A stretch of DNA of 64,000 bases from an uncultured Bacteroidota bacterium (GTDB lineage Bacteria > Bacteroidota > Ignavibacteria > UBA10030 > UBA6906): positions 672,001 to 736,000 of the forward strand of contig CAVOYH010000003.1 of assembly GCA_963700635.1 (NCBI GenBank). Direction: 5' to 3'. Each line of letters starts with the position of its first letter. The stretch's first letter is position 1. The translations under genes and the position numbers were made by a program. The notes under the pieces are model-generated. The model saw only the letters and a list, made by a program, of their open reading frames with translations, was not told the DNA's origin and made no database searches. This document shows positions 28,421-46,062 of the stretch, one piece after another.

Positions 28421-30920
28421 ATGAGCCAACAACAAAAAAAGACCACACCGCGCAAGACGACCACCCAGCCGTCGCTCTTTTCCCGGTTTACCCCTTTCCA
28501 GCTTGACCTGGTATGCGTGGTTGTCTTGTATCTCCTTACCCTCGTCGTCTTTCGGGGAATTGTGTTCGAAAACGCAGCGTTCCAGACGGAAGGAGACACC
28601 GCCTCCGCGCTGAGTTATGCAGAAGCCGGTAACAGGATAGCCAGAGCAGAGGGTGTGGATGTGTTGTGGATGCCCAACTTCTTCAGCGGCATGCCCACAT
28701 TCGGCAACGTGGCATATGTTCCCCATGACGTAAGCTACATCCAGACTGTTCTCCAGAGAGTGCTCAACCTGCTCTTTCTGAACGGTAAATGGACCTGGCT
28801 GGTGGTATACTATTTCCTGGGCGGAATATTCATGTTTCTCTTGATGCGTGTGCTGAATTTTTCCAGGATTTCGGCGCTCTTTGGTGCAATCCTCTTCATG
28901 CTTGCGCCATACAACATGGGCCTGGCAACCGAAGGGCATGGTTCCAAGCTGATGGCGCTGAGCTATTTTCCCCTCGTCTTTATGCTTACCCATATGCTGT
29001 TCGAACGCCGCGATATCCTCAGCTTCGGCCTTCTCACCGCCGCCATCGGCACGCTCGCTCTGACCAATCACATGCAGATTGTCTATTATGTCTTCATCGT
29101 CATCGGTCTGTATCTCCTCTACCATGTTGTCGTTGAGGTTCGGCGGGCTCCCGGACGGGCAGCCCTGATCACCGGTCTCTTCGCGGGCGCTCTGGTGCTC
29201 GGTCTCTGCATCGCATCCTATATTTATTTGTCCGTCTATGAATATGCCCAGTTTTCCATCCGCGGAGGAGGCACTGCCGGAGCCCCTGGAGGTCTTGCCT
29301 GGGATTATGCAACGAATTGGTCGTGGCATCCACAGGAGATGTTCACACTCCTCATCCCATCATTTATGGGATTTCAATCCCCCTATTACTGGGGAACGAT
29401 GCCGTTTACGAACTCGACCATCTATCTCGGGATTCTGCCGATTCTGCTGGCCGTTCTGGGCCTTGTGTATAACCGCACCCGCCTCGGCGTGTTCCTGTCA
29501 CTACTCGCAGTGGTCATGATCCTGATCTCCTTCGGGAAACATTTTCCTCTGGTGTACGGAGCGCTTTTTGAGTATATGCCGTTCTTCAACAAGTTCCGGG
29601 TGCCGGTGATGGTGCTTCATCTGCTCCCCTTTGTTGTCGGTATCCTTGCCGGCTATGGCCTGCAGTTTCTCATCAATCCGCCGGAGGGGGTGAAGAAAGA
29701 ACAGATTGCCAGACTCAGCCGCCGGCTCTTGATCATCGGCGGGATCCTCTTTGGTGTTCTCATTCTCGCCACACTGTTGAAGAGCTCTCTCTTCCAGACC
29801 ATGTCCGGATCAATGTTTACCAAAGAAGGCGAATTGGAAGTGCTCCGTCAGGAATACGGAAACCAGGTCAGTCAGGTGATGACGCAGCTAAAACAGGCGC
29901 GCTTTGATGCCCTCTGGAAGGATTTTGTGAAGTTTGTTTTTCTGGCAGTAGCTTCTCTGGGTGTGGTGGTCCTGTTCTTGAAGAAAAAGCTTTCCGTTGT
30001 TGTCCTGTCCGCTGCTGTGTTTGCGCTCCTTCTTGTCGACCTCTTGATTGTCATCAACAAGGGGAACTACATTTCGCCAAAACCCGACTCCCAGCTTGAA
30101 GCACAGTTTCAGGCCGATGCGAACAGTGCAATTCCTTCAGCAACAACCGGGTCTCTTCCGCATTTTTCCGCTCGGCGGTCTCTTTATCGACAACACATTC
30201 GCCTACCATGGCCTGCAGTCCATCGGAGGATACAGCCCGGCAAAGCTGAAGATTTATCAGACCATGCTTGACTCCTGCATGTATGAGGGTGCGGATCCTT
30301 CGTTCCGGCTGAATATGAACATGGTCAACATGTTGAACGCACAGTATCTGATTGCACAGGGACGGTTACCGGAAGACCGGTTCACCCTTGTGAACGTGGA
30401 TCAGGCAAAGCGCATACTGGTGTACCGGAACAATCATGCCCTTCCACGGGCGTATATTGTCGGCGAGGCAAAAATCGCGGCAAGTCCGACAGAGGTCTTC
30501 GCTCTGTTGAATGCTCCTGCGTTTGATGCGGCCCGAACGGCGGTTCTGGAGAAGACCCCGTCCGGACAGATCACCAGACCCGACAGCAGCAGCGTGCAGA
30601 TCACGGGGTACCAGTCACGCCAGATTACAGCCAGTGCATTTACGTCGTCCACGGCGCTTCTGGTCTTAAGCGAGATATACTATCCGGCTGGATGGAAAGC
30701 CTTCATTGATGGACAGGAAACGGAGATTTTGAAGACTAATTACGTTCTCAGGTCCATCGTTATGCCCCCCGGCCTCCATACTGTCGAGTTTCGCTTTGAT
30801 CCGGCGATATACAGCACAGGCTACACACTTTCCAATATCAGCTGGATGGTGGTATTATGCTGTGTGCTGTTCGGACTGTGGCGGATTCCGGCGATCCGGG
30901 CAAAACTGGCACGTCGTTGA
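28421..30920 (+). pseudogene. Second YfhO-family GT-C protein with an apparent +1 frameshift at about 30122 (possibly a sequencing error)
   Basis: LWMPNFFSGMP and FNKFRVP in ORF 28421-30271; GGYSPAKL, LPRAY, SEIYYPAGW in ORF 30048-30920; removing one A from GCG-A-ACA-GTG joins the frames. Confidence 0.85.
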
Positions 30921-31363: not shown

Positions 31364-31421
31364 TCCACGATTGCTGTCATCGCGCCCCTCCGGGGCGCAG
31401 CGACCACACGATATCACCACC

Positions 31422-31946
31422 ATGATCGATTTTGCGCTCGGCTTGATTGAAACCCGTGGCCTCGTTGGATCCATCGAGGCCGCTGATGTGATGCTGAAAA
31501 CTGCCAATGTACGTCTGGTCGGGAAAGAGATTGTACGGGATGGACTCGTCACGGTAGAAATCGTCGGCGATGTGGCGGCGGTAAAAGCGGCGGTGGAGGC
31601 CGGGGCAACCGCGGCGGGTCGCGTTGGAGAACTTGTCTCACAGCATGTGATTCCCAGACCCGTCGACGATATTGAGTCCCTGCTGGCCAGAGCAGTCACC
31701 GATCGTAAGCATGATCCTCCTGACCATAGACCGGCGGTCAAACCCAAAAAAGCGTCTGAACCCGTACTGGAATTCAAAGAGCCGTCGGAGACGGGTCCTT
31801 TTCAGCAAAGACTCGAAGAAATGACCGTACGTGAACTGCGTACTCTCGCTCGCGAAACCGAAGGTCTGGATATCCAGGGTCGCGAGATCTCAAAGGCAAA
31901 CAAAGACCTCTTGATACGGGAGATACTGAAAGCCCGAACATCATAG
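31422..31946 (+). CDS. BMC-H shell protein with C-terminal linker and small helical (Rho_N-like) extension
   Basis: ALGLIETRG, AADVMLKTA, GDVAAVKAA, HVIPRP, then LEEMTVRELRTLAR...KDLLIREIL. Confidence 0.9.
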   Translation: MIDFALGLIETRGLVGSIEAADVMLKTANVRLVGKEIVRDGLVTVEIVGDVAAVKAAVEAGATAAGRVGELVSQHVIPRPVDDIESLLARAVTDRKHDPPDHRPAVKPKKASEPVLEFKEPSETGPFQQRLEEMTVRELRTLARETEGLDIQGREISKANKDLLIREILKARTS

Positions 31947-32964: not shown

Positions 32965-33675
32965 ATGCGATTGTGTATCAACATTGATCATGTCGCCACC
33001 CTCCGCGAAGCCCGGGGTGGCATGGAGCCGGACCCCATCATGGCTGCCCATCTGTGCGAGCTCGCGGGCGCGCATGGCATCGTGTGCCATCTGCGCGAAG
33101 ACCGGCGTCACATCAACGACCGGGATCTGAGGCTCCTTCGGGAAACGGTGAAGACGAAGCTGGATCTGGAAATGGCCGCCACGGATGAGATTGTAAAAAT
33201 CGCCATTGACACACTTCCTGAACTTGTGACGTTTGTCCCCGAGCGCAGGCAGGAGCTGACCACGGAGGGGGGGCTGGATGTCCGCGGACACCGGCATCAT
33301 CTCCGCGACATTATCACGGAAATGCATCGCCATGAGATTGAGGTAAGTCTGTTTATCGATCCGGTGACAGAACAGGTGGAAGCTGCAGCGGAGGTGCAGG
33401 CGGACAAGATTGAAATTCACACGGGGGAATATGCCAATGCAGGTTCCGAACGCGAACAACTGGCTCTGCTGGAGATCGTGCGGGGCGCGGCACGGCATGC
33501 GCGGGAACTTGGCATGGGCGTCAACGCCGGCCACGGCCTCAACTACCTGAACATCCTCCCCTTCAGAGAGATCGAGGAGATTGAAGAAGTCAGCATCGGG
33601 CACGCTATAATTTCACGCGCCCTTTACGTGGGTCTCGACCGTGCAGTGAGAGAAATGGGTGACCTGGTTAGATAG
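32965..33675 (+). CDS. pdxJ: Pyridoxine 5'-phosphate synthase
   Basis: NIDHVATLREARG, HLREDRRHI, TTEGGLD, NAGHGL, SIGH. Confidence 0.98.
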   Translation: MRLCINIDHVATLREARGGMEPDPIMAAHLCELAGAHGIVCHLREDRRHINDRDLRLLRETVKTKLDLEMAATDEIVKIAIDTLPELVTFVPERRQELTTEGGLDVRGHRHHLRDIITEMHRHEIEVSLFIDPVTEQVEAAAEVQADKIEIHTGEYANAGSEREQLALLEIVRGAARHARELGMGVNAGHGLNYLNILPFREIEEIEEVSIGHAIISRALYVGLDRAVREMGDLVR

Positions 33676-33683
33676 ACCTCTGT

Positions 33684-33758
33684 CTATCCCCTCGCGAGCA
33701 CCCAAACGACAAGCAGCGTCAGAGTAGCGAAAACAAGAACTCTTGGCAAGGATTTCAA
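33684..33758 (-). CDS. Candidate 24-aa single-TM small protein MKSLPRVLVFATLTLLVVWVLARG
   Basis: TTG start preceded by G-rich SD GAGGGGGGAGGG; one hydrophobic helix; not in the ORF track. Confidence 0.3.
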   Translation of the reverse strand: MKSLPRVLVFATLTLLVVWVLARG

Positions 33759-33855
33759 GAACCCTCCCCCCTCGTTGTGATCTCTCTCCCTCTTTTTGTC
33801 ACAAACGGGCATGTCTGCAGAAATTCGGATGGCAGACCTGCTTTTCCCGTCGATT

Positions 33856-34998
33856 TCAGGCCCTTCTCAAAATCACCATGGCACTCAACACCATGAGAGC
33901 TGCGACAACGAAAAGAGCCGCGTGGAATGTCCCGGTGGAGTCATAGACAAGTCCGGCAAGGATCGGCGCCGGCGCCGCAAGGATGTTGGCGGAAAAAAGG
34001 AGTCCGTACACTTGTCCGACCCGGGCCGTACCCCATACACGCGCGACAGCCGATGCGTACAGGACGAGTACTCCTCCGTAGTTAAAACCTGCCACCATCG
34101 CAAAGACAACAAGTCCGGCACCGGTGCCACAGGAAAATACAATCACCGAACACGCCTGGAAGATGAGATTTGCACTGATGACTGTGCGCAGTTCCGTCCG
34201 GTCGAACAGATATCCCCACGTTAACCGTCCAAGAGCATTCGCAACCGCAAAAAGCGACACTGCCGCGACTCCTGTTGTTAACGCCCCGGCTGTTGACAAT
34301 TCTTTCAGGTTGGCATTAATCATAAAACCCGCAGCAAGTCCCGTGACCATCGCCAGATAGAGCAGCCGGAATGTGGGGTGAGATACTATTGCTGTTGTGG
34401 AGAGAAGGGGCGGCTCAGATGTAGTTGTTCCGCTGGGAAACCGTAATGTGCGGGAGGCCAGAGACGTCACACCGCAGAAGAGTATTCCCAGAACCAGAAA
34501 TACGTAAAATGGTGATGTGCTTCCTGCGATCAACCACAAACCTGAGACCTGACTGATCAAAGCCGCCCCTCCGCCAAACCCCGCAACGGCAACTCCTGTC
34601 ACTAGCCCTCTACGTTCGGGAAACCACCGCACCAGGACTGCAATGGGCACGACATACGCACACCCGACGCCGATCCCTGCAAGAAGTCCGATTCCCAGCA
34701 CGGTGAACACAAAATGGTAAGAACCCAGCGAAGCAAGAATCCAGCCGGAGCCAAAAAGAATTCCCCCCACCAGCGCACAACGTTGCGGACCCAAGCGGTT
34801 CAGGATCGTTCCGGCAAAGAGCATCGTAGCCGGAAATGCGAAATAGAAGACTGTGAAGGGAAGCTGTACCGTAGCCTGTGAGAGTCCCGTGGTCTCACGG
34901 AGAGGCAGCACAAAGACAGACCATGCATACGTCGCCCCCAGACACATCTGGAGGCCGAGGGATGCAACAATGATCAGGGAACGACGGGGCGTGTTCAT
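33856..34998 (-). CDS. MFS transporter, oxalate:formate antiporter (OFA)-like
   Basis: LGATYAWSVF, WFPERRGLVTG, GFGGGA, NALGRL, about 12 TM helices. Confidence 0.88.
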   Translation of the reverse strand: MNTPRRSLIIVASLGLQMCLGATYAWSVFVLPLRETTGLSQATVQLPFTVFYFAFPATMLFAGTILNRLGPQRCALVGGILFGSGWILASLGSYHFVFTVLGIGLLAGIGVGCAYVVPIAVLVRWFPERRGLVTGVAVAGFGGGAALISQVSGLWLIAGSTSPFYVFLVLGILFCGVTSLASRTLRFPSGTTTSEPPLLSTTAIVSHPTFRLLYLAMVTGLAAGFMINANLKELSTAGALTTGVAAVSLFAVANALGRLTWGYLFDRTELRTVISANLIFQACSVIVFSCGTGAGLVVFAMVAGFNYGGVLVLYASAVARVWGTARVGQVYGLLFSANILAAPAPILAGLVYDSTGTFHAALFVVAALMVLSAMVILRRA

Positions 34999-35006
34999 AC
35001 GTGGCG

Positions 35007-37322
35007 TTACAACGGATCCCGCTCAACGCCAAGTTCCCAGCGCCGGCTTTGCCGCATCAGCGAATCAAAATAGTGACTGTTGGGATTCGTCTGCAATCTC
35101 CCATTCGCCTTCAGCAAATCCACCATTAAGTCGTAGCTATCCCCCGTTGACGTGTACAGGAATCGCATGTGCCTGTCAAATGTGTAGTTGAGGATTGGCT
35201 CCGAGGGCCATCCCGGCGGGATATCGGGGCCTAATCCGTCACTGATGCACGCCGTGATTCGTCCGAGCCGCTCATCAACCTTTGTAAACAGAGCTGAATT
35301 TCCCTTGCTTGAGCCACGGAAGGCATCTCCCACGGCCGTGCGCGGAATCAGGATATAGTATTTCTCCCTGGCTGCAACGGGGGCATCACAGCGGTACTCT
35401 CCTTGTGTCGGAGAACAGCCATCCATCTGTCCGACTTCCAGAACTGCAACAAAGGCACGCCGGTATGCATTGTTGACGCCACAGGCAACAATCTCTTTCA
35501 CCCCATCCTGATCCACATCTCCGACTTCGATATCTGCCACATGTCCGACATGGACGTATTGTTCCCGTATTGTACCGTCGCGCCCATTCAGGCGCACGAC
35601 AAAACCTGGAAATGATGGTGTGTGCGACCCCGAAACAAACACATCCGGAGCGCCCTCCACACCGGTATCCATGACCACGATGTCTGAGTTACAGTAGGTT
35701 CCTCCGAGGGTTTCCTGCTTTTCTGGAAAAAGCGCCCTGGGAATGATCGTCGTTCGCCAGAGAAAAGTTTCTTTTTGAATGGACCATGCGCACACCTCAT
35801 CGTGTACCACCAGACGATCCGAACTGGTCCGGACAAATACGATATCGGGAACATGATCTCCATCAAAATCGCCGAAACCGTGCCCCTTCTGTGCCACCAT
35901 AGTGCTGACAAGACGTGTCCCCTTCTCAACAGTGGCCCTTCCTACGGTGATGTCCCCTATCATCTTTCCGTACCGGTTCTGCACCGTAAGTCTGTCGCCT
36001 GCATATTCCACCGATACAGGAATCTTATCCCATGATCCCGACAGGTGCCAGAGTGTCAACAGAACGAGCCCCGAGGATGCGACAAGTGCCACACTGCGGG
36101 TCTTTTTCTGCCATATCCTTCGGGCGGTATGAGCGACCAGACCCGACCGGGTATGCCGTGTCACCCGCCGGTCATAAAACACTTCCCGCACATGCCGCAC
36201 CCCGATCACATCCAGCACGCGGTGTGGATGATCCTTTGAGAGTGCCGCAATCAGACTTTCGGCAACGGTCAGGTGGTTCCTGGGGACGACCACGGCCGAG
36301 AGAGGGGAATAGAATACTGCTTCGAGTTTCTGTGGAAGCGTGCCCTCGTCAACGGGCATGACCGATCCGTCGGGATCCACATCTCCGGTGATTGCCACTG
36401 ATGAAAGGACGTCGTATTGTTCGCGTTGTCCGGCAGCGCGTGTTACGCCGGCGATGAGGAGGACCGCCAGGGCGAGGTTTGCCGACCCGCCTTCGTGCAG
36501 GGTCTGTTTGCCGCGGAACGTCGCATGGCCGCGCACATAGTTCCGGGCTATACGTGGCTGCATTTGTTCCAGTACGCTCCGCGCCGCTCTTGCCGAAGTG
36601 TCCCACACCGCTGCATGAACATCCTTCACTCCAAAGACGGCCACATCGGAATGCAGCTCATCTTTTTCGCCTCCTGCCGCACCGGTGATCTGAAGTTCCA
36701 GCATCTGCATTCCTCCCCACGATGCCGGCGCCGCACCCTCTGTCAGGCCATGTTCGACGACAGGAACAAAACAGGAGTTGGAGGATCGTTGAAGGGCAGA
36801 TTCCCAGTGTGCCTGGATTATGCGCAAGGAGGTGGAAACCGGGTGACCCGACGCTTCAACTTCGGCTGTCCACCGGCGTACCCGTTCAAACAAAGGCTCG
36901 CGACCCTCCTCTGGTACCGGCACGGTTGATCCCGGATCGCCACCAGCATCAAGAACCTGCCATGCCCTGTCCCGATCACCCGCGTACAGATACAACTCCG
37001 CCAGCCGTAATCGGATTTCATGTTCAATTTCTGCAAACATCGGTTCTAGGGCAAACCCTGAAACATCGTCCGCCAGAACTGCCAGCGTACGATGGAGTGA
37101 AGCAAGTGGCTGGGGGGAGAGTCCGAATGTCGGCAATTCCTGGATCGTCCCCTTCAGCCTTGGAAGGCAATCACGGATATACGATTCGTATACACCTGCC
37201 TCTTGGCCAAGAAAGGAGAGAAAATGGTCGAGTGCAACGATATCCTGAAGGGAAGAGTGGGGATAAGCGAGTGTGACAAGAAGGGTCTGGTAGTGCTGCT
37301 CGACCGTGAGAGGATTGTGCAT
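35007..37322 (-). CDS. Single-pass membrane protein: helical N-domain + AAA-less Lon (S16) protease domain + TM + FG-GAP repeat ectodomain
   Basis: HEGGSANLA (Ser280), VAITGDVDPDGSVMPV, PQKLEA (Lys332), VVVP.N, DVIGVRHVREV parallel the Lon protease domain; TM about aa 410-427; GDFDGDHVPDIV and GDVDQDGVKEIV repeats. Confidence 0.8.
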   Translation of the reverse strand: MHNPLTVEQHYQTLLVTLAYPHSSLQDIVALDHFLSFLGQEAGVYESYIRDCLPRLKGTIQELPTFGLSPQPLASLHRTLAVLADDVSGFALEPMFAEIEHEIRLRLAELYLYAGDRDRAWQVLDAGGDPGSTVPVPEEGREPLFERVRRWTAEVEASGHPVSTSLRIIQAHWESALQRSSNSCFVPVVEHGLTEGAAPASWGGMQMLELQITGAAGGEKDELHSDVAVFGVKDVHAAVWDTSARAARSVLEQMQPRIARNYVRGHATFRGKQTLHEGGSANLALAVLLIAGVTRAAGQREQYDVLSSVAITGDVDPDGSVMPVDEGTLPQKLEAVFYSPLSAVVVPRNHLTVAESLIAALSKDHPHRVLDVIGVRHVREVFYDRRVTRHTRSGLVAHTARRIWQKKTRSVALVASSGLVLLTLWHLSGSWDKIPVSVEYAGDRLTVQNRYGKMIGDITVGRATVEKGTRLVSTMVAQKGHGFGDFDGDHVPDIVFVRTSSDRLVVHDEVCAWSIQKETFLWRTTIIPRALFPEKQETLGGTYCNSDIVVMDTGVEGAPDVFVSGSHTPSFPGFVVRLNGRDGTIREQYVHVGHVADIEVGDVDQDGVKEIVACGVNNAYRRAFVAVLEVGQMDGCSPTQGEYRCDAPVAAREKYYILIPRTAVGDAFRGSSKGNSALFTKVDERLGRITACISDGLGPDIPPGWPSEPILNYTFDRHMRFLYTSTGDSYDLMVDLLKANGRLQTNPNSHYFDSLMRQSRRWELGVERDPL

Positions 37323-37419
37323 AGGAGCTCATGAGACTGCACATCGTACAAAGGGCTCAGGACGCGAGTGGCGGCCAACGGAAAATTCGGCGTGACACGG
37401 ACCGGTGAAGTTACCGGCT

Positions 37420-38265
37420 TTATCCGTACAGTCGCAACACGAAATCCCCCTCCCCTGCGGGGAATTCTCCTGCTCCATGGATCAGAATGCTCAACACGGC
37501 GTCAGACGGAGTCTTCACCAGTGCCACTGCTGGCAGGGCGGGATTTCCCTCGTCATACACACGGACACGGATGAGATCTCCGTTGTTCGTCACCTCGATT
37601 GTACAATGGTGGTCGTTCTCACCCTTCGTGTAGGCGATGGATTTCTCCAGGGGCAGGTCATTTCGGCCGAACGTAACTGTCGCCACCGGTATGCGAAGGA
37701 GTCCTTCGATCTGGGACCAATCACGCGGTTCCATTGCCGGCTGTAACTCAAAACCAACCTGCCCCCGGTCGTCCGTCACAAACTCGCCTATATCCGGAAG
37801 GGAGATCAGCACAACTTCTCGTTTATGCGGATCTTCCGTATGGACGTACAGGCGGTATGCATGCGCATCACCCTCACGCCGTATTCGTACAAGGGTGTTT
37901 TCGGGTTCAGATGCCAGTGTTGCGACCGTTTCGTCAAATCCACGGGCCAACGTCCGGGGTGTCATCGCCGCGAGCACCGTCGTATATCTGCCGTGCAGCG
38001 TGTGCATGTCAGGCCGGGGTCTGAAAGGGATAAGCCGGATGGTCGTTGCTGATGGGATAATCTTCTTCATAACTTCTGCGAGAAGATCTTTCTCCAGAGC
38101 CCCGGCGGTTACCATCGTCGCATAAAACTCCCGCTGCGCTTCCTCCACGGCCCTGCACCCCGGGCACCGGGCCAGATGTTCCCGTATTTCTACGAGTGTG
38201 GCAGCATGCAGTCGCTCAGGGGCGACAATACTGAGTTCGATTGTATGTTCGTCAATATGGTTCAT
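37420..38265 (-). CDS. Soluble zinc-binding anti-sigma factor-like protein (zf-HC2/ZAS)
   Basis: H3...H30-LAR-C34-PG-C37 (HxxxCxxC) at N-terminus; no TM helix; beta-rich C-terminal part. Confidence 0.75.
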   Translation of the reverse strand: MNHIDEHTIELSIVAPERLHAATLVEIREHLARCPGCRAVEEAQREFYATMVTAGALEKDLLAEVMKKIIPSATTIRLIPFRPRPDMHTLHGRYTTVLAAMTPRTLARGFDETVATLASEPENTLVRIRREGDAHAYRLYVHTEDPHKREVVLISLPDIGEFVTDDRGQVGFELQPAMEPRDWSQIEGLLRIPVATVTFGRNDLPLEKSIAYTKGENDHHCTIEVTNNGDLIRVRVYDEGNPALPAVALVKTPSDAVLSILIHGAGEFPAGEGDFVLRLYG

Positions 38266-38342
38266 TGTTACTATTGGTTATGCGCAAATCTCTCCTCCCA
38301 CAGAAATCCGCCGTTCTCTCTCCACCGGTTGGGGAGAGCCAA

Positions 38343-39374
38343 TCACGGAACTTTTCCGATCCCCAATTCCCGTCTGATTTGTCGTACAAACGCCGCCCTT
38401 GCGAGTTTTACCAGGTATTCAAATCGACACCGGTGCTCCTGATGATATTGTTCCAATGTCAGCAAGGGTATTCCCGCGGCGAGATGGTCATGGTACGAGG
38501 TGGCGTGTCCGTCGTTTAAAATGAACTCAGCCCGGAGAATCGCCTGAACAGCTTCCCTGTAGGCGCTGAATGTTGTTTCAGCCACCGTTCCTTTCTCTAC
38601 ATAGAGCCTGTGCTTTTTGTCAAATACAGCAGTCACCGTTCCGGTGATTGCCGCTTCAAGTTCTTCCGGACGGATCGCCGATGAAGTGTCCGTCTCTTCC
38701 GGGGTTGTTGCAACACCGATGCGCAAAAAGGCCGTGCGGATCAGCAGGCCAAGCAGCGTTAACGGATAACTCCTCCGGTAGATATTCTGTTGATCCAAAA
38801 TACATGCAACACGATCCATCACTTCAGGCATGACGCTCTTTCCCGAGAGGTCCACAACAAGGAGGCCCTCAAGATATTCCCAGGGGATCTCCGGCAGCTG
38901 CCGGATGTGCTCGGTCTCTGTCGTTACCTGCACCCACAACTCGCCGTTGCGGCGATCTTCAGTCAACCGGGAATTCTTCCGGATGGCATTGCGGATATTG
39001 CGAAGTATCTTTTCCAGAGAGGGATCGGACTCTTTATAGAGCCGTGACAGTTGCTGATGGACTTTACTGTAGACGAGGCGGCGGGTGAAGGAAAGAAGCT
39101 CCTCTTCGGAGAGCGAGTCCCATCCAAGGGGCGTATAGTATGCGTGCAGTTGAACGAATCGTCCGCTTCCATCCCGTTCATAGAGGGGCCCGATACAGTC
39201 GACAGCGAGATCATGAACAGAAAGACCAAAAAAATCGGGATGGATGGTACGTGCGTGGATTCTCTTATGAAGATAGACCGTGGCAATCCGAATCGTCAGG
39301 GCAACATACGGCTGCATATCCGTCGTTGTCGGGTGCGGCGCGAGAATGCGTCGGAGGGCTTCGCTGAGATGCAT
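38343..39374 (-). CDS. Divergent ECF-like sigma factor (putative)
   Basis: Region-2-like HDLAVDCIGPLY...FTRRLVYSKVHQQLSRLYK; C-terminal region-4-like FEYLVKLARAAFVRQIRREL; directly upstream of a ZAS gene; ATG 39374 with AGGGG SD. Confidence 0.55.
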   Translation of the reverse strand: MHLSEALRRILAPHPTTTDMQPYVALTIRIATVYLHKRIHARTIHPDFFGLSVHDLAVDCIGPLYERDGSGRFVQLHAYYTPLGWDSLSEEELLSFTRRLVYSKVHQQLSRLYKESDPSLEKILRNIRNAIRKNSRLTEDRRNGELWVQVTTETEHIRQLPEIPWEYLEGLLVVDLSGKSVMPEVMDRVACILDQQNIYRRSYPLTLLGLLIRTAFLRIGVATTPEETDTSSAIRPEELEAAITGTVTAVFDKKHRLYVEKGTVAETTFSAYREAVQAILRAEFILNDGHATSYHDHLAAGIPLLTLEQYHQEHRCRFEYLVKLARAAFVRQIRRELGIGKVP

Positions 39375-39424
39375 TGTTCCCCTGAATGTCAGCAGCAGCA
39401 ATGCCCCGTGGGGGCACTGCCGTA

Positions 39425-40024
39425 TTAGTCGCGAATCTCCAATCTCCGGATCTCATCCCGCAGGCCCGCGGCCTTCTCGTAATCCTCTTTTTCGATCGCC
39501 TGCTTCAGCTGTTGATGGAGCTGTTCGAGACGGGTAAGCTTGTTGGGTGGCTGATCTTTTGGTGCTGCAGCGGCTTTGGGTGGTTTTGCGCCTCCCCCCT
39601 CTTTCTGTTGTGCTTCCTCTTCTTCTTCCTCCGGCACAAATGACGCTTCGTCCATAACGCCACCCGCCACAAAAATCTGCGCGCCATACCGGACGGCGAG
39701 GGCGATCGCATCACTCGGACGGGAATCAATGAGCTGGTTGTCAATATTCAGCTTTGCGTAAAATGTCCCGTCGCGCAGGTCGTCAATCGTAACATCCATC
39801 AGTTCGGAACCAAACGATGTGATGATGTTTTTCATCAGATCGTGCGTCAGCGGTCGTGGCGGCTTGATCCCCTCCATTTCCAGGGCGATTGACTGCGCCT
39901 CGGCCTGCCCGATAATAATCGGCAGGCGGCGGGTCCCTTCGACTTCCCGGAGAATCAACGCATACGCTCCGCCACTGGCGGGATTTGTTGAGAGTCCTAG
40001 TATATCAACCAGCACGCGTTCCAC
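39425..40024 (-). CDS. Bifunctional nuclease family protein (DUF151) with C-terminal UvrB/UvrC motif
   Basis: LPIIIG, PPRPLTHDL, DSRPSDAIALA, AIEKEDYEKAAGLRDEI. Confidence 0.93.
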   Translation of the reverse strand: MERVLVDILGLSTNPASGGAYALILREVEGTRRLPIIIGQAEAQSIALEMEGIKPPRPLTHDLMKNIITSFGSELMDVTIDDLRDGTFYAKLNIDNQLIDSRPSDAIALAVRYGAQIFVAGGVMDEASFVPEEEEEEAQQKEGGGAKPPKAAAAPKDQPPNKLTRLEQLHQQLKQAIEKEDYEKAAGLRDEIRRLEIRD

Positions 40025-40097
40025 ACTATACTCCTTCCCTGGGTCAGCTCCTCATCGCCCTGGTCTCGATGATCGTCATGCATCCATCACGGTCTGT

Positions 40098-41069
40098 CTA
40101 TTTCCCGAGCGCCTGCTTTAACTGCGATGTCAGTTCGGGAAGAATCTCGAACACATCTCCCGCAATGCCATAGTCTGCAATCTGAAAGATCGGGGCGTCT
40201 TTATCCTTGTTGATGGCCACAATGTACTTCGACGATGACATACCTGCAATATGTTGAACCGCCCCGGAGATTCCGCATGCAACATACAGTGTCGGAGACA
40301 CCGTCTTCCCGGTTTGTCCAACCTGTTCGTCGTGCGGGCGCCAGCCGGCATCCACCACAGCGCGTGACGCACCCACCGCCGCACCGAGCACATCAGCCAG
40401 CGATTCCAGCAGAGCAAAATGCTCCGGCCCTTTCATTCCGCGACCGCCGGAGACGATGATGTCCGCTTCTGTGACATCAGGCCGGCCTGTGGAAACTTGT
40501 ACATCCTTAACGACAGTGACAAAGTCGGCCGGATCAAGCGCCACTGACACCGACTCGACGGTCGGATCACTGCCTCCCGGGGTCGCGGTGAAGACGTTCG
40601 GGCGCAACGTAAACACCTTCACCGGCGTTGTCACACGCACATCCACGAGCGCCTTTCCTGCATACACCGGCCGCGTCGCTATAATATCGCCGTTCTCAAC
40701 CTTGAGATCCACGCAGTCGCCTGCGAGACCCGCCTTCAGCTTCAGGGCAACGCGGGGGGCAAGGTCTTTCCCCATCTGGCTCGCGGGCAGGAACACGATT
40801 CCGGCACCCTGTTTCGTTGCCACCTCGGCGATCACTTTTGCGTATGCAACGCTGGCATGCGCGGCGAGTGTTGGATCATCCACAACCACAACACGTGATG
40901 CGCCGAACTGTCCGAGTTCCTTTGCCATGGTAGTGATGCCACTGCCAACGACAAGGGCACAGAATTCGGCTTTGAGTGTGTCGGCTACGCCCCGCGCTGC
41001 ACGAATGGTCTCAAACGAGGATTTCTTAAATTTTCCATCACGATGTTCGGCAAATGCAAGAATAGTCAT
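40098..41069 (-). CDS. etfA: Electron transfer flavoprotein alpha subunit
   Basis: [34 protein letters not shown]. Confidence 0.96.
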
Positions 41070-44386: not shown

Positions 44387-44899
44387 TCACCAGCCAGATA
44401 CTGTTTCAAGCAAGACATCTTCACTGATTTTCCGGATCGCTTCTTGCATTCCCGCCTTCCGTTGTGACACGCCACCTCCGGAGTCGTAGTCCCCCCAGTT
44501 GGAAAAATTCTTTTCCCAGACCTTGCGGCGTAGTTTCATGTCCTGAAATGTGAACTTGACCGACATGGTGATGCGGCGTTTGCTCACCTGCTCACCCTGC
44601 TCGACAACGGAGGGTGCATCGGTCACGGTAACGATGGACCCGACCAGCAGCGCATCTGCGGTACTCCGATCGGCAACCTGCAGACTGTTGTCGTTGATAA
44701 AGAGATCCGTCACGGACCGTGTCACTTCCTCCCGCAATCCAGGTTCACCGAATCCCGACTGATCGTCGATCAGTGGAACGGCGATGGTTTTCAGATGTGA
44801 CGGGACAGAAGCCCCGGTAAAGGAATAGACGCATCCGGTAACAAGGAACGCAACCGTGCAGGCAAAGATGTGTACGGGGCCGGTGTTCCGTCTTTTCAT
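44387..44899 (-). CDS. lptE: LptE-family lipoprotein
   Basis: Lipobox VTGC, YSFTGAS, ending SGW; context downstream of sigma54-type regulator as in Bacteroidota. Confidence 0.7.
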
Positions 44900-46062
44900 C
44901 CGTGCTCCCTCGCATCCAGCCCGTATTCCTTGATTTTTCTGTACAACGTGCGCTCGCTGATGTGAAGGGCCCGTGCGGCAACGCGGCGGTTGCCTTTGTA
45001 CCGCTCGAGGGCTTCGCTAATCATGCGCCGCTCCATTGTCTCCAGCGAGAGGTTCGCGGGCTCCACAGCCTCCCGGGACTCGTCCGGATCCGCGTTTCCC
45101 GACCGGTACATGTCCTGCGTTTGCAGATGGTCGAGAAGTTCATTTTTGAGGTCCAGAATACTTCCCTTGATGTCAAGCAATGCACGGAGGATCAATTCTC
45201 GTTCCGCCTGTTCAACGCTCCTGCCGACGGGAACCGGGAGATTTCTTTCTTCCGTAACACCCCGGAACTCTTTTAAGTATTTCTGCACATCCTGCGGTTC
45301 AAGATGGCGGCCGTTTTCCAGGATCAGCATGCTCTCCACCACATTGCGCAATTCCCGGACGTTTCCGGGCCAGTGATAGGATTGGAGGAGCGCCAGCGCC
45401 GAAGGGCTGATGCCGGCAAACGGCACGTTGTTCCTGCGGGAGATTTCAGCTGCAAAATGCCGAAAGAGCACGGGAATATCTTCCACGCGCTTCCGGAGCG
45501 GGGGGATGCTGATATTCACCGACCGGAGGCGGTAAAACAGATCTGCGCGGAACCGCTGCGCCTGGACTTCCACCTCGAGGTTTTTATTTGTTGCGGCGAT
45601 CACGCGCACATTCACTGTCCGCGATACCGATGAACCCACACGGAGAAATTCGCCATTCTCAAGTATCCGCAGAAATTTTACCTGCGCCGAGAGGGGTAAT
45701 TCACCCACCTCGTCGAGAAAGATACTCCCCCCGTCAGCCAGCTCGAAGTACCCCTTTCGCTGTTCCGATGCGCCGGTAAAGGACCCGCGCTCATGCCCGA
45801 ACAACTCACTCTCGATGATACCTTCGGGGATGGCGCCACAGTTCACGGTAATCAGGGGCTTTTTGCTGCGCGGGCTGGCTTCATGGATCGCTTTGGCGAT
45901 CACCTCTTTCCCGACGCCACTTTCCCCCGTCACGAGCACGGTGATATCTGTCGGTGCGACCTGTTCAATCACGTCAACGATTTTCCGTATTTCCATGGAT
46001 TCGCCGACGATACCATGCTCTTCCTGGAAACGGTCTGACTGTATGCGTACCGCTGCGTCCAT
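44896..46062 (-). CDS. Sigma54-interaction (bEBP-like) AAA+ regulator with Fis HTH, no input domain
   Basis: [52 protein letters not shown]. Confidence 0.93.

Follow-up and report, generated by a model that had tools for sequence, protein, structure and literature searches.

A membrane-spanning Lon-type protease with an extracytoplasmic propeller, encoded beside anti-sigma-like and sigma2-like genes: a candidate receptor protease

In the classical systems that carry an extracytoplasmic signal to a sigma factor, the anti-sigma factor is itself a membrane-spanning protein, and two different proteases perform its site-1 and site-2 cleavage. A related logic operates in the CRISPR-associated CalpL-CalpT-CalpS cascade, where, according to excerpts of the published account (bioRxiv 10.1101/2024.05.08.593097; PMC11417357), the SAVED-Lon protease CalpL, which lacks an AAA module, oligomerises upon binding cyclic tetra-adenylate (cA4) and cuts the anti-sigma factor CalpT between A204 and A205 in an LAAA motif. 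The same excerpts describe how exposure of the LAA degron results in degradation by proteases of the cell and in release of CalpS, a sigma factor resembling the extracytoplasmic function (ECF) type, and report that the authors liken this degron to the VAA degron of RseA. Here, we analyse a 64,000-nucleotide stretch of DNA (the window; all coordinates below are positions within it) from an uncultured Bacteroidota bacterium of the Ignavibacteria (GenBank assembly GCA_963700635.1, contig CAVOYH010000003.1, positions 672,001 to 736,000), which encodes a 771-residue Lon-like protease of receptor type, P0001, directly behind two further genes, up2 and up1. On balance, we favour the reading that P0001, up1 and up2 are a transmembrane, non-CRISPR counterpart of the CalpL-CalpT-CalpS cascade, composed of a sensor-protease, a soluble anti-sigma-like inhibitor and a sigma2-like regulator.

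Architecture and distribution of P0001

The P0001 gene, delimited from an open reading frame (ORF) listing and its translation, occupies 35007..37322 on the minus strand (as do all features of P0001, up1 and up2 given below), with its stop codon at 35007-35009, and the N-terminus of the product, MxNPL.., is kept from residue 1 across homologues. The first-pass annotation, made from the DNA letters, had read in this frame a Lon protease without an ATPase domain inside the cell and an FG-GAP β-propeller outside it. The strings that it quoted are all present in the translation, both those that it compared with Lon motifs (HEGGSANLALAV, VAITGDVDPDGSVMPV, LPQKLEAV, VVVPRNH and LDVIGVRHVREV) and the remainder (RRIWQKKTR, GDFDGDHVPD, GDVDQDGVKE and LAELYLYAGDRDRA), and the codon arithmetic for Ser280 (36485-36483) and Lys332 (36329-36327) is correct.

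Family scans with the single P0001 sequence were weak, returning Pfam FG-GAP_3 at an expect value (E) of 1.6e-5 (25.9 bits, cut-off 26.9), Pfam Lon_C at E 0.11 (12.5 bits, cut-off 21.1) and NCBIfam LonB at E 0.005, so that the motif-based Lon assignment needed deeper tests. A word-indexed search found only 6 relatives. An exhaustive HMMER scan of 1.84 billion representative proteins found 1701 at E<=1e-3, 828 at E<=1e-10 and 222 at E<=1e-30, mostly 700-800 residues long and aligned end to end, which is more than chance would give. Conservation counts given below refer to a 108-member alignment, with 22-44% identity to P0001, which also served as input for an AlphaFold2 model with a mean predicted local distance difference test score (pLDDT) of 93.6.

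The Lon (S16-type) proteolytic domain spans residues 176-393 (36144..36797), with no AAA+ module in front. Searched against the PDB, the P0001 family profile matched the proteolytic domain of A. fulgidus LonB at E 2.1e-7, laying hEGrSAn on vEGDSAS and KveAa on KIEAA, and a profile of the Lon domain only, built from 18 cassette proteins, matched B. subtilis LonB at E 4.9e-7. The former alignment places Ser280 (36483..36485), the predicted catalytic nucleophile, on the Ser of vEGDSAS and Lys332 (36327..36329), the predicted general base, on the Lys of KIEAA, giving a Ser-Lys dyad at homologous positions. Ser280 is present in 108/108 members and Lys332 in 106/108; G278 and G313 are likewise found in 108/108, and T312 in 102/108 with Ser in the remaining 6. 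The earlier claim that the dyad looks intact is therefore borne out as far as sequence goes, and both residues are conserved among homologues. The Walker A pattern G....GK[ST] is absent from P0001, and neither Pfam nor NCBIfam scans detected an AAA domain in it, in agreement with the annotation; since AAA+ is missing, P0001 is not a LonA or LonB. Its protease domain has the Lon proteolytic fold and, judged from its sequence, is a predicted peptidase.

Preceding it is an all-helical, cytoplasmic N-terminal domain of residues 1-175 (36798..37322), modelled by AlphaFold2 as helices 4-19, 24-62, 70-86, 94-113, 117-124, 144-157 and 162-177, which we propose to be a docking domain. A remark in the first-pass annotation that this region is TPR-like was not supported: residues 102-127 gave one sub-threshold match to TPR_14/TPR_19 (E 0.064 and 0.11), and the model consists of long helices, including 24-62. 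A TPR array was rejected as a domain assignment because only this single sub-threshold repeat was found.

A single transmembrane helix, residues 407-429 (36036..36104), separates the protease from the ectodomain. Residues 411-429 are the sole strongly hydrophobic segment of P0001, the equivalent segment is the top Kyte-Doolittle segment in 7/7 homologues, and AlphaFold2 places a helix at 407-427. Lys and Arg are distributed with a strong bias in 7/7 homologues, 4-6 lying in the 15 residues before the hydrophobic segment and 0-2 after it, which, together with the modelled helix, confirms the N-in topology with one transmembrane helix that had been deduced from the basic patch. The predicted extracytoplasmic sensor, residues 430-771 (35010..36035), is a β-propeller with a C-terminal helical cap. 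It contains two Ca-type loops: loop 1, residues 485-493 (35844..35870), reads DFDGDHVPD in P0001 and DxDGDGxNE in consensus, with D485 in 98/108 and D489 in 99/108 members, and loop 2, residues 602-610 (35493..35519), reads DVDQDGVKE, with D602 in 102/108, D606 in 85/108 (Asn in a further 18), G607 in 88/108 and E610 in 94/108. The family consensus for the two is D485-x-D/N-x-D489-G-x-N-E and D602-x-D/N-x-D606-G-x-x-E610. P0001 thus combines a β-propeller fold with DxDxDG-type Ca loops, as FG-GAP/integrin-alpha-type proteins do, and the predicted Ca-binding repeats and propeller ectodomain are both supported, by conservation of the loops in the family and by the fold. Relatives of the propeller include polysaccharide lyase and carrageenase-type propellers, as weak matches. 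Taken together, the original architectural reading, a cytoplasmic Lon-type Ser-Lys protease without an ATPase, one N-in transmembrane helix and an outer Ca-loop propeller of FG-GAP type, is upheld.

All P0001 relatives for which a source name is given are called 'hypothetical protein', and the family is present in 33/301 sampled genomes of the phylum, covering 23/143 genera. We found no description of a protein combining a Lon-like domain, a transmembrane segment and FG-GAP repeats, or of an FG-GAP anti-sigma factor, in the full-text literature, subscription journals being outside its coverage. The architecture of P0001 is not that of a characterised family. A membrane-spanning form built as a putative receptor protease, the partners encoded with it and its distribution are what is new here; the logic of protease, anti-sigma factor and sigma factor is already known. 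One shortened member, L034:2749-4248 (G245:C70), is a 499-residue protein that ends at the transmembrane segment, has no propeller and adjoins up2 and a short up1-like ORF. It passes the Pfam Lon_C cut-off, with 29.8 bits against 21.1, and may be a sensor-less form or the product of an assembly or frame problem.

Partner genes, the two-gene form and the genomic surroundings

Upstream of P0001 lie up1 (37420..38265), encoding a 281-residue soluble protein with an anti-sigma-like (zf-HC2-type) N-terminus, the proposed substrate, and up2 (38343..39401), encoding a protein of 343-352 residues whose N-domain resembles sigma domain 2, the proposed output regulator. The start of up2 is uncertain, as the longest ORF begins at a TTG and gives 352 residues; the database gene call and all homologues begin at Met10 (39374), giving 343. 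Neither up1 nor up2 had a significant Pfam match in single-sequence scans.

We compared 13 related loci from Ignavibacteriota, 'Chlorobi', Chitinophagales-labelled metagenome-assembled genomes and Balneolaceae. Queries from the window detected up2 in 12 of them and up1 in 8 by tblastn, and ORF maps show a ~335-residue ORF, then one of ~250-300 and then one of 707-803 residues in 11/11 loci with sufficient upstream DNA. Each locus has one to three protease genes in tandem behind the up2-up1 pair; L003, L005, L008 and L009 (e.g. L008:1223-8313) have two or three tandem paralogues behind a single pair, which suggests that several sensors feed one pair of regulators. In the 301-genome sample of the phylum, which includes kin, the family occurs in 33 genomes, up2 in 34 and both in 32, and 38 of the 43 family matches have an up2 match within 3.4 kb on the same contig and strand. 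The five without one are G293:C160, where the match touches the edge of a contig, G112:C14, G177:C38 and a pair on G241:C54. Across Ignavibacteria-like and Balneolaceae genomes, the three genes occur together and side by side.

About one third of the matches found in the 301 genomes cover the ectodomain only, in ORFs of ~470-570 residues. All six such loci that were fetched have an up2 homologue (tblastn E 5e-13 to 3e-38), and in 6/6 the protein directly after it, of 467-515 residues, carries an invariant N-terminal HxxxCxxC, a hydrophobic segment, a DKNPSYAR motif and a propeller. Profile comparison by hhalign aligns the first 64 columns of this protein with the up1 N-terminus (98.3%, E 2.2e-14) and columns 130-476 with the transmembrane segment and ectodomain of the P0001 family (100%, E 1.2e-50). 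It is a fusion of the up1 N-module and the P0001 sensor in one polypeptide, encoded beside up2, and this two-gene variant is arranged like a classical membrane anti-sigma factor. A tree of ectodomains (19 of 24 rows used, five having been dropped at motif-based trimming) parts the two-gene from the protease-bearing form by a single branch with 100/99 support. A further protein, L043:473-2884 (G109:C3), lies directly after an up2 homologue and, in 803 residues, joins an HxxxCxxC N-terminus and a transmembrane segment to two tandem propellers.

Several observations point to an anti-sigma-like character of up1. It gives a sub-threshold match to Pfam zf-HC2 (E 0.011) and scores E 0.07-0.13 with NCBIfam anti-sigma models, and zf-HC2 is the only recurrent Pfam family among 13 up1 orthologues (4/13 at E<=1, best E 0.0058, all below the cut-off). 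As in zf-HC2/anti-sigma proteins, an HxxxCxxC motif lies in an N-terminal helical module, at residues 30-37 of up1 (HLARCPGC, 38155..38178); the motif occurs in 5/13 orthologues and in 6/6 of the membrane-anchored variants. The Zn ligands are kept in the 5 Ignavibacteria-type orthologues. Scanning the window's own genome with zf-HC2 gave a match at this motif (18.9 bits), which ranks fifth of six; four of the five others lie about 300-400 bp from a Sigma70_r2 match. A PDB profile search with up1 gave nothing meaningful, the best match, at 0.003, being a designed Ig protein. Residues 97-100 of up1 form a VLAA motif (37966..37977), and [VI]LAA recurs at residues 75-117 in 30/31 database homologues, the miss being a 189-residue fragment, and in 12/13 locus orthologues, L003 having VMAA. 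At the equivalent position, [VI]LAA is absent from 6/6 membrane-anchored variants. We propose that VLAA is a cleavage site and a latent C-degron.

For up2, an AlphaFold2 model (pLDDT 82.2) gave no Foldseek match at E<=1e-3. With residues 1-126, however, sigma factors made up 16/17 and 20/21 of the matches listed in two VIA-align runs, the sole non-sigma match listed in both being the RNA-guided transcription complex 9n9q. Among the sigma factors are pro-sigmaK (7.2), BldN (6.9), SigW (6.8) and sigmaS (6.4), and the comparison with region 2 of RpoS scored 6.0 with 95/96 residues aligned. For residues 127-350, which the search barely covered, no sigma domain 4 was among the matches listed. An Atlas search gave only 'hypothetical protein' clusters, with HTH_psq (0.87), Sigma70_r2 (0.84) and Sigma70_r4 (0.83) as weak named leads for up2, and up2 is not among the 14 Sigma70_r2 matches in its own genome. 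The modelled structure thus suggests a sigma2-like N-domain; we do not call up2 a sigma factor, and use the term sigma2-like only, because the sequence tests reported below were negative.

Eight base pairs downstream of P0001 is a gene for a major facilitator superfamily (MFS) transporter (33856..34998, minus strand; Pfam MFS_1 E 2e-27), which adjoins the cassette in the window only, and at greater distance in L001. It is possibly co-transcribed with P0001, the link being uncertain; no terminator signal exceeded chance, and a promoter and terminator scan across 33500-40100 yielded counts like those of shuffled sequence (5 vs 4.2 and 8 vs 5.8). The locus is flanked by etfAB, a bifunctional nuclease gene, pdxJ and ybbR, in synteny with L001 and L003, and a canonical Lon-like match lies elsewhere in the genome. 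PADLOC gave no match for the protease, up1, up2 or 7/8 other neighbours scanned. Eight kilobases away, at 44896-46062 (minus strand), a sigma-54-activator-type AAA+ protein matched its RtcR_PspF2 models (E 1e-109), most likely as a generic AAA+ and helix-turn-helix match and not as a defence gene. In L006 (8347-11748), L007 (8490-11153), L012 (7792-9705) and L013 (7872-9830), the next gene encodes a protein sorted by the type IX secretion system (T9SS; Por_Secre_tail) with Dockerin_1 and either Laminin_G_3 or CBM_4_9; the next gene in L001 (8566-9993) encodes a DUF362 protein whose T9SS tail is weak. In Rhodohalobacter (L008:8385-12174), a DUF4953 Met-zincin is followed by a GH43 enzyme, and in L009, where only that gene was scanned, a GH43 gene lies two ORFs further along. 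These downstream genes are possible regulon members. Elsewhere in the window, a lone shell protein with a bacterial microcompartment (BMC) domain (31371-31946, plus strand; E 2.8e-27) ends in a C-terminal tail that gives a weak match to Rho_N (E 0.013), and no microcompartment enzymes were noticed near it. A large YfhO/PTPS_related-type membrane protein (28421-30920, plus strand) is split into overlapping ORFs of 616 and 290 residues, the second matching the YfhO C-terminus (E 1.6e-9), and the split may reflect a frameshift or sequencing error.

Proposed mechanism and rival explanations

In the mechanism that we propose, a periplasmic ligand would bind the propeller. The ligand is perhaps a polysaccharide, a lead suggested by the type of propeller and by the secreted carbohydrate-binding neighbours in some loci. 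Binding would alter how the cytoplasmic Lon domains are oligomerised or oriented, with activation probably occurring through oligomerisation, and the activated protease would cut up1, probably at or close to VLAA, in the linker that follows the inhibitory N-terminal module of up1. The new ...LAA C-terminus would act as a degron for housekeeping AAA+ proteases, the N-terminal fragment of up1 would be degraded, and up2 would be freed to act on transcription. The cytoplasmic cA4 sensor of CalpL would, in effect, be replaced by an extracytoplasmic one. The label 'receptor protease' in the first-pass annotation gains independent support from the conserved cassette with its anti-sigma-like and sigma2-like genes and from the variant in which the sensor is fused to the anti-sigma-like module, and it falls short of proof. 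More tentatively, and as a possibility that we hold with less than even confidence, these genes may represent an unrecognised mode of trans-envelope signalling in Bacteroidota, Ignavibacteria and Balneolaceae: a ligand-gated, ATP-independent Lon protease in a single polypeptide would replace sensor, site-1 and site-2 protease, cut the anti-sigma-like protein at VLAA to create a degron and free up2 as a sigma-like factor diverged beyond detection, making the system a non-defence relative or forerunner of the CalpL-CalpT-CalpS logic.

A number of points weigh against a cascade of the CalpL type. Cleavage, binding of up1 to up2 and sigma activity are inferred. The order of genes in the cassette is not universal, up2 lying downstream of the protease gene in G121, G177 and G265, and the co-occurrence counts are inflated, since related genomes in the sample do not count as independent observations. 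What lies downstream of the cassette varies between loci, so no regulon is evident. The zf-HC2 score of up1 is below the Pfam cut-off (16.3 vs 22.2 bits), and the 8 Balneolaceae-type orthologues lack the Zn ligands. Sequence profiles leave the sigma identity of up2 unsupported: at E<=1, the Sigma70 models of Pfam match 0/17 up2 members, comparison of up2 with ECF sigma factors of its own genome by hhalign gives only 1.1% and 0.9%, and a PDB profile search gave no meaningful match (best E 0.29). Moreover, the Lon-only profile did not detect CalpL at E<=10, nor do the 50 structural matches listed for P0001 include it. The resemblance to CalpL is consequently one of logic and not of shown homology; this non-detection does not exclude a relationship.

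Adjacency links the three genes without telling which product is cut, the helical N-domain of residues 1-175 has no assigned role, and gene order varies in three genomes, all of which would fit a different wiring in which the protease acts on up2 or on another substrate, or constant turnover keeps the pathway off, with up1 as an adaptor. We regard such a wiring as unlikely, though worth keeping in view, since the near-invariant VLAA sits in up1, in the protease-bearing variant only, and matches the CalpT cleavage motif, and since the two-gene variant shows the up1 N-module to be the element coupled to the sensor. It is quite improbable that P0001 instead has a housekeeping or quality-control task as a protease anchored in the membrane, the Lon equivalent of FtsH or of archaeal LonB, with the propeller as a scaffold and neighbours that are unrelated. 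Its closest sequence matches are indeed the proteolytic domains of LonB-type enzymes, and archaeal LonB is membrane-bound according to an excerpt of PMC3391209. However, P0001 has no AAA+ unfoldase, which general degradation of folded proteins requires, the family is patchy (33/301 genomes, 23/143 genera), tandem paralogues occur, coupling to up1 and up2 is tight, the same ectodomain is found on anti-sigma-type proteins, and the genome has its canonical Lon-like match elsewhere.

Self-processing occurs in some Ser-Lys proteases, and the N-domain of P0001 is kept from residue 1 with no function assigned, so that the Lon-like domain might cut its own chain and release the N-domain as a signal, making P0001 a membrane-tethered regulator. 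We consider this very improbable: between residues 160 and 185, neither a conserved Ala-rich site nor any other candidate was noticed, the N-domain lacks a DNA-binding signature, and the VLAA of up1 and the fusion variant would be left unexplained. The logic of protease, anti-sigma factor and sigma factor, common to CalpLTS and Craspase-Csx30-CASP-sigma, would also suit a module for defence against phage in the manner of CalpL-CalpT-CalpS, set off by an event at the envelope during infection, to which we assign a very small probability: among the three genes and the 8 other neighbours scanned, PADLOC matched nothing except the generic AAA+ activator 8 kb away, the etfAB, nuclease, pdxJ and ybbR flanks, syntenic in L001 and L003, do not form a defence island, and the sensor faces the periplasm. 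Finally, we can give almost no credence to a Lon-like domain that binds without catalysing, in the way of RadA/Sms or ComM, as the Ser, the Lys and the Thr of the TG pair (102/108, with 6 Ser) are kept across 22-44% identity, the pattern of an active site under selection. The counterpart of the CalpL cascade, with up1 as the substrate, is the reading that we favour.

Comparison with known systems

Were that reading true, the cassette would be a compact alternative to multi-protease regulated intramembrane proteolysis, present in 33 of 301 genomes and 23 of 143 genera; the Lon-protease/anti-sigma/sigma logic, known to date from the CRISPR-associated CalpL only, would extend to ordinary environmental sensing, and up2 would be a candidate for a new family of sigma-like regulators missed by domain databases. 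Carriers that can be cultivated exist in Gracilimonas and Rhodohalobacter (G. tropica DSM 19535, G. mengyeensis DSM 21985 and R. sulfatireducens WB101), and the idea is therefore directly testable.

Among LonB-type Lon proteases, the archaeal membrane LonB and the B. subtilis LonB ('Lon protease 2') differ from P0001, which has no AAA+ ATPase and a Ser-Lys spacing of 52 residues. In LonB, the transmembrane segment interrupts the ATPase; in P0001, the transmembrane helix follows the protease domain and leads into a large ectodomain. Of the ATP-independent Lon-like proteases and Lon-fold modules, MtaLonC, the C-domain of BrxL, RadA/Sms and ComM are soluble and cytoplasmic, lack the combination of transmembrane helix and ectodomain, and are tied to chaperone, phage-restriction or DNA-repair functions, unlike P0001.

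The likeness to CalpL, as far as excerpts of its description go, is that both are Lon proteases without AAA, with an N-terminal helical domain, a fused sensor and adjoining genes for a soluble inhibitor and a sigma-type factor, both of them putative beside P0001; likewise, the LAA|A cleavage motif given there for CalpT has its parallel in the near-invariant VLAA of up1. The two differ in their sensors, a cytoplasmic cA4-binding SAVED domain in CalpL and a periplasmic β-propeller behind a transmembrane helix in P0001. P0001 has no Pfam match to SAVED, the transmembrane helix and propeller lie C-terminal to its Lon domain, and no type III CRISPR or defence context was found at the locus by PADLOC on the three genes and their neighbours. 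The inhibitors differ as well, CalpT being MazF-like with DUF2080 in the excerpted text (bioRxiv 10.1101/2024.05.08.593097), and up1 having a zf-HC2-like N-terminus. Excerpts of the same source also present Craspase (TPR-CHAT)-Csx30-CASP-sigma as a tripartite cascade of protease, inhibitor and sigma factor (bioRxiv 10.1101/2024.05.08.593097); its protease is caspase-like, of unrelated fold, cytoplasmic and activated by an RNA-guided complex.

With RseA-sigmaE and RsiW-sigmaW, the proposed system would share the transmission of a signal from outside the cytoplasm by way of anti-sigma factor proteolysis, as well as a C-terminal Ala-rich degron, given as VAA for RseA in the excerpted text (bioRxiv 10.1101/2024.05.08.593097), and the two-gene variant, with its zf-HC2-like module, transmembrane segment and sensor, has the same architecture as these proteins. 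The two-gene and three-gene variants thereby offer a natural experiment on splitting a membrane anti-sigma factor into a soluble inhibitor and a receptor protease. In the three-gene form, in contrast to RseA and RsiW, a soluble inhibitor is paired with a membrane-spanning sensor that brings a Lon-type protease of its own on the cytoplasmic side, so that the single P0001 polypeptide would replace the sensor, site-1 and site-2 steps.

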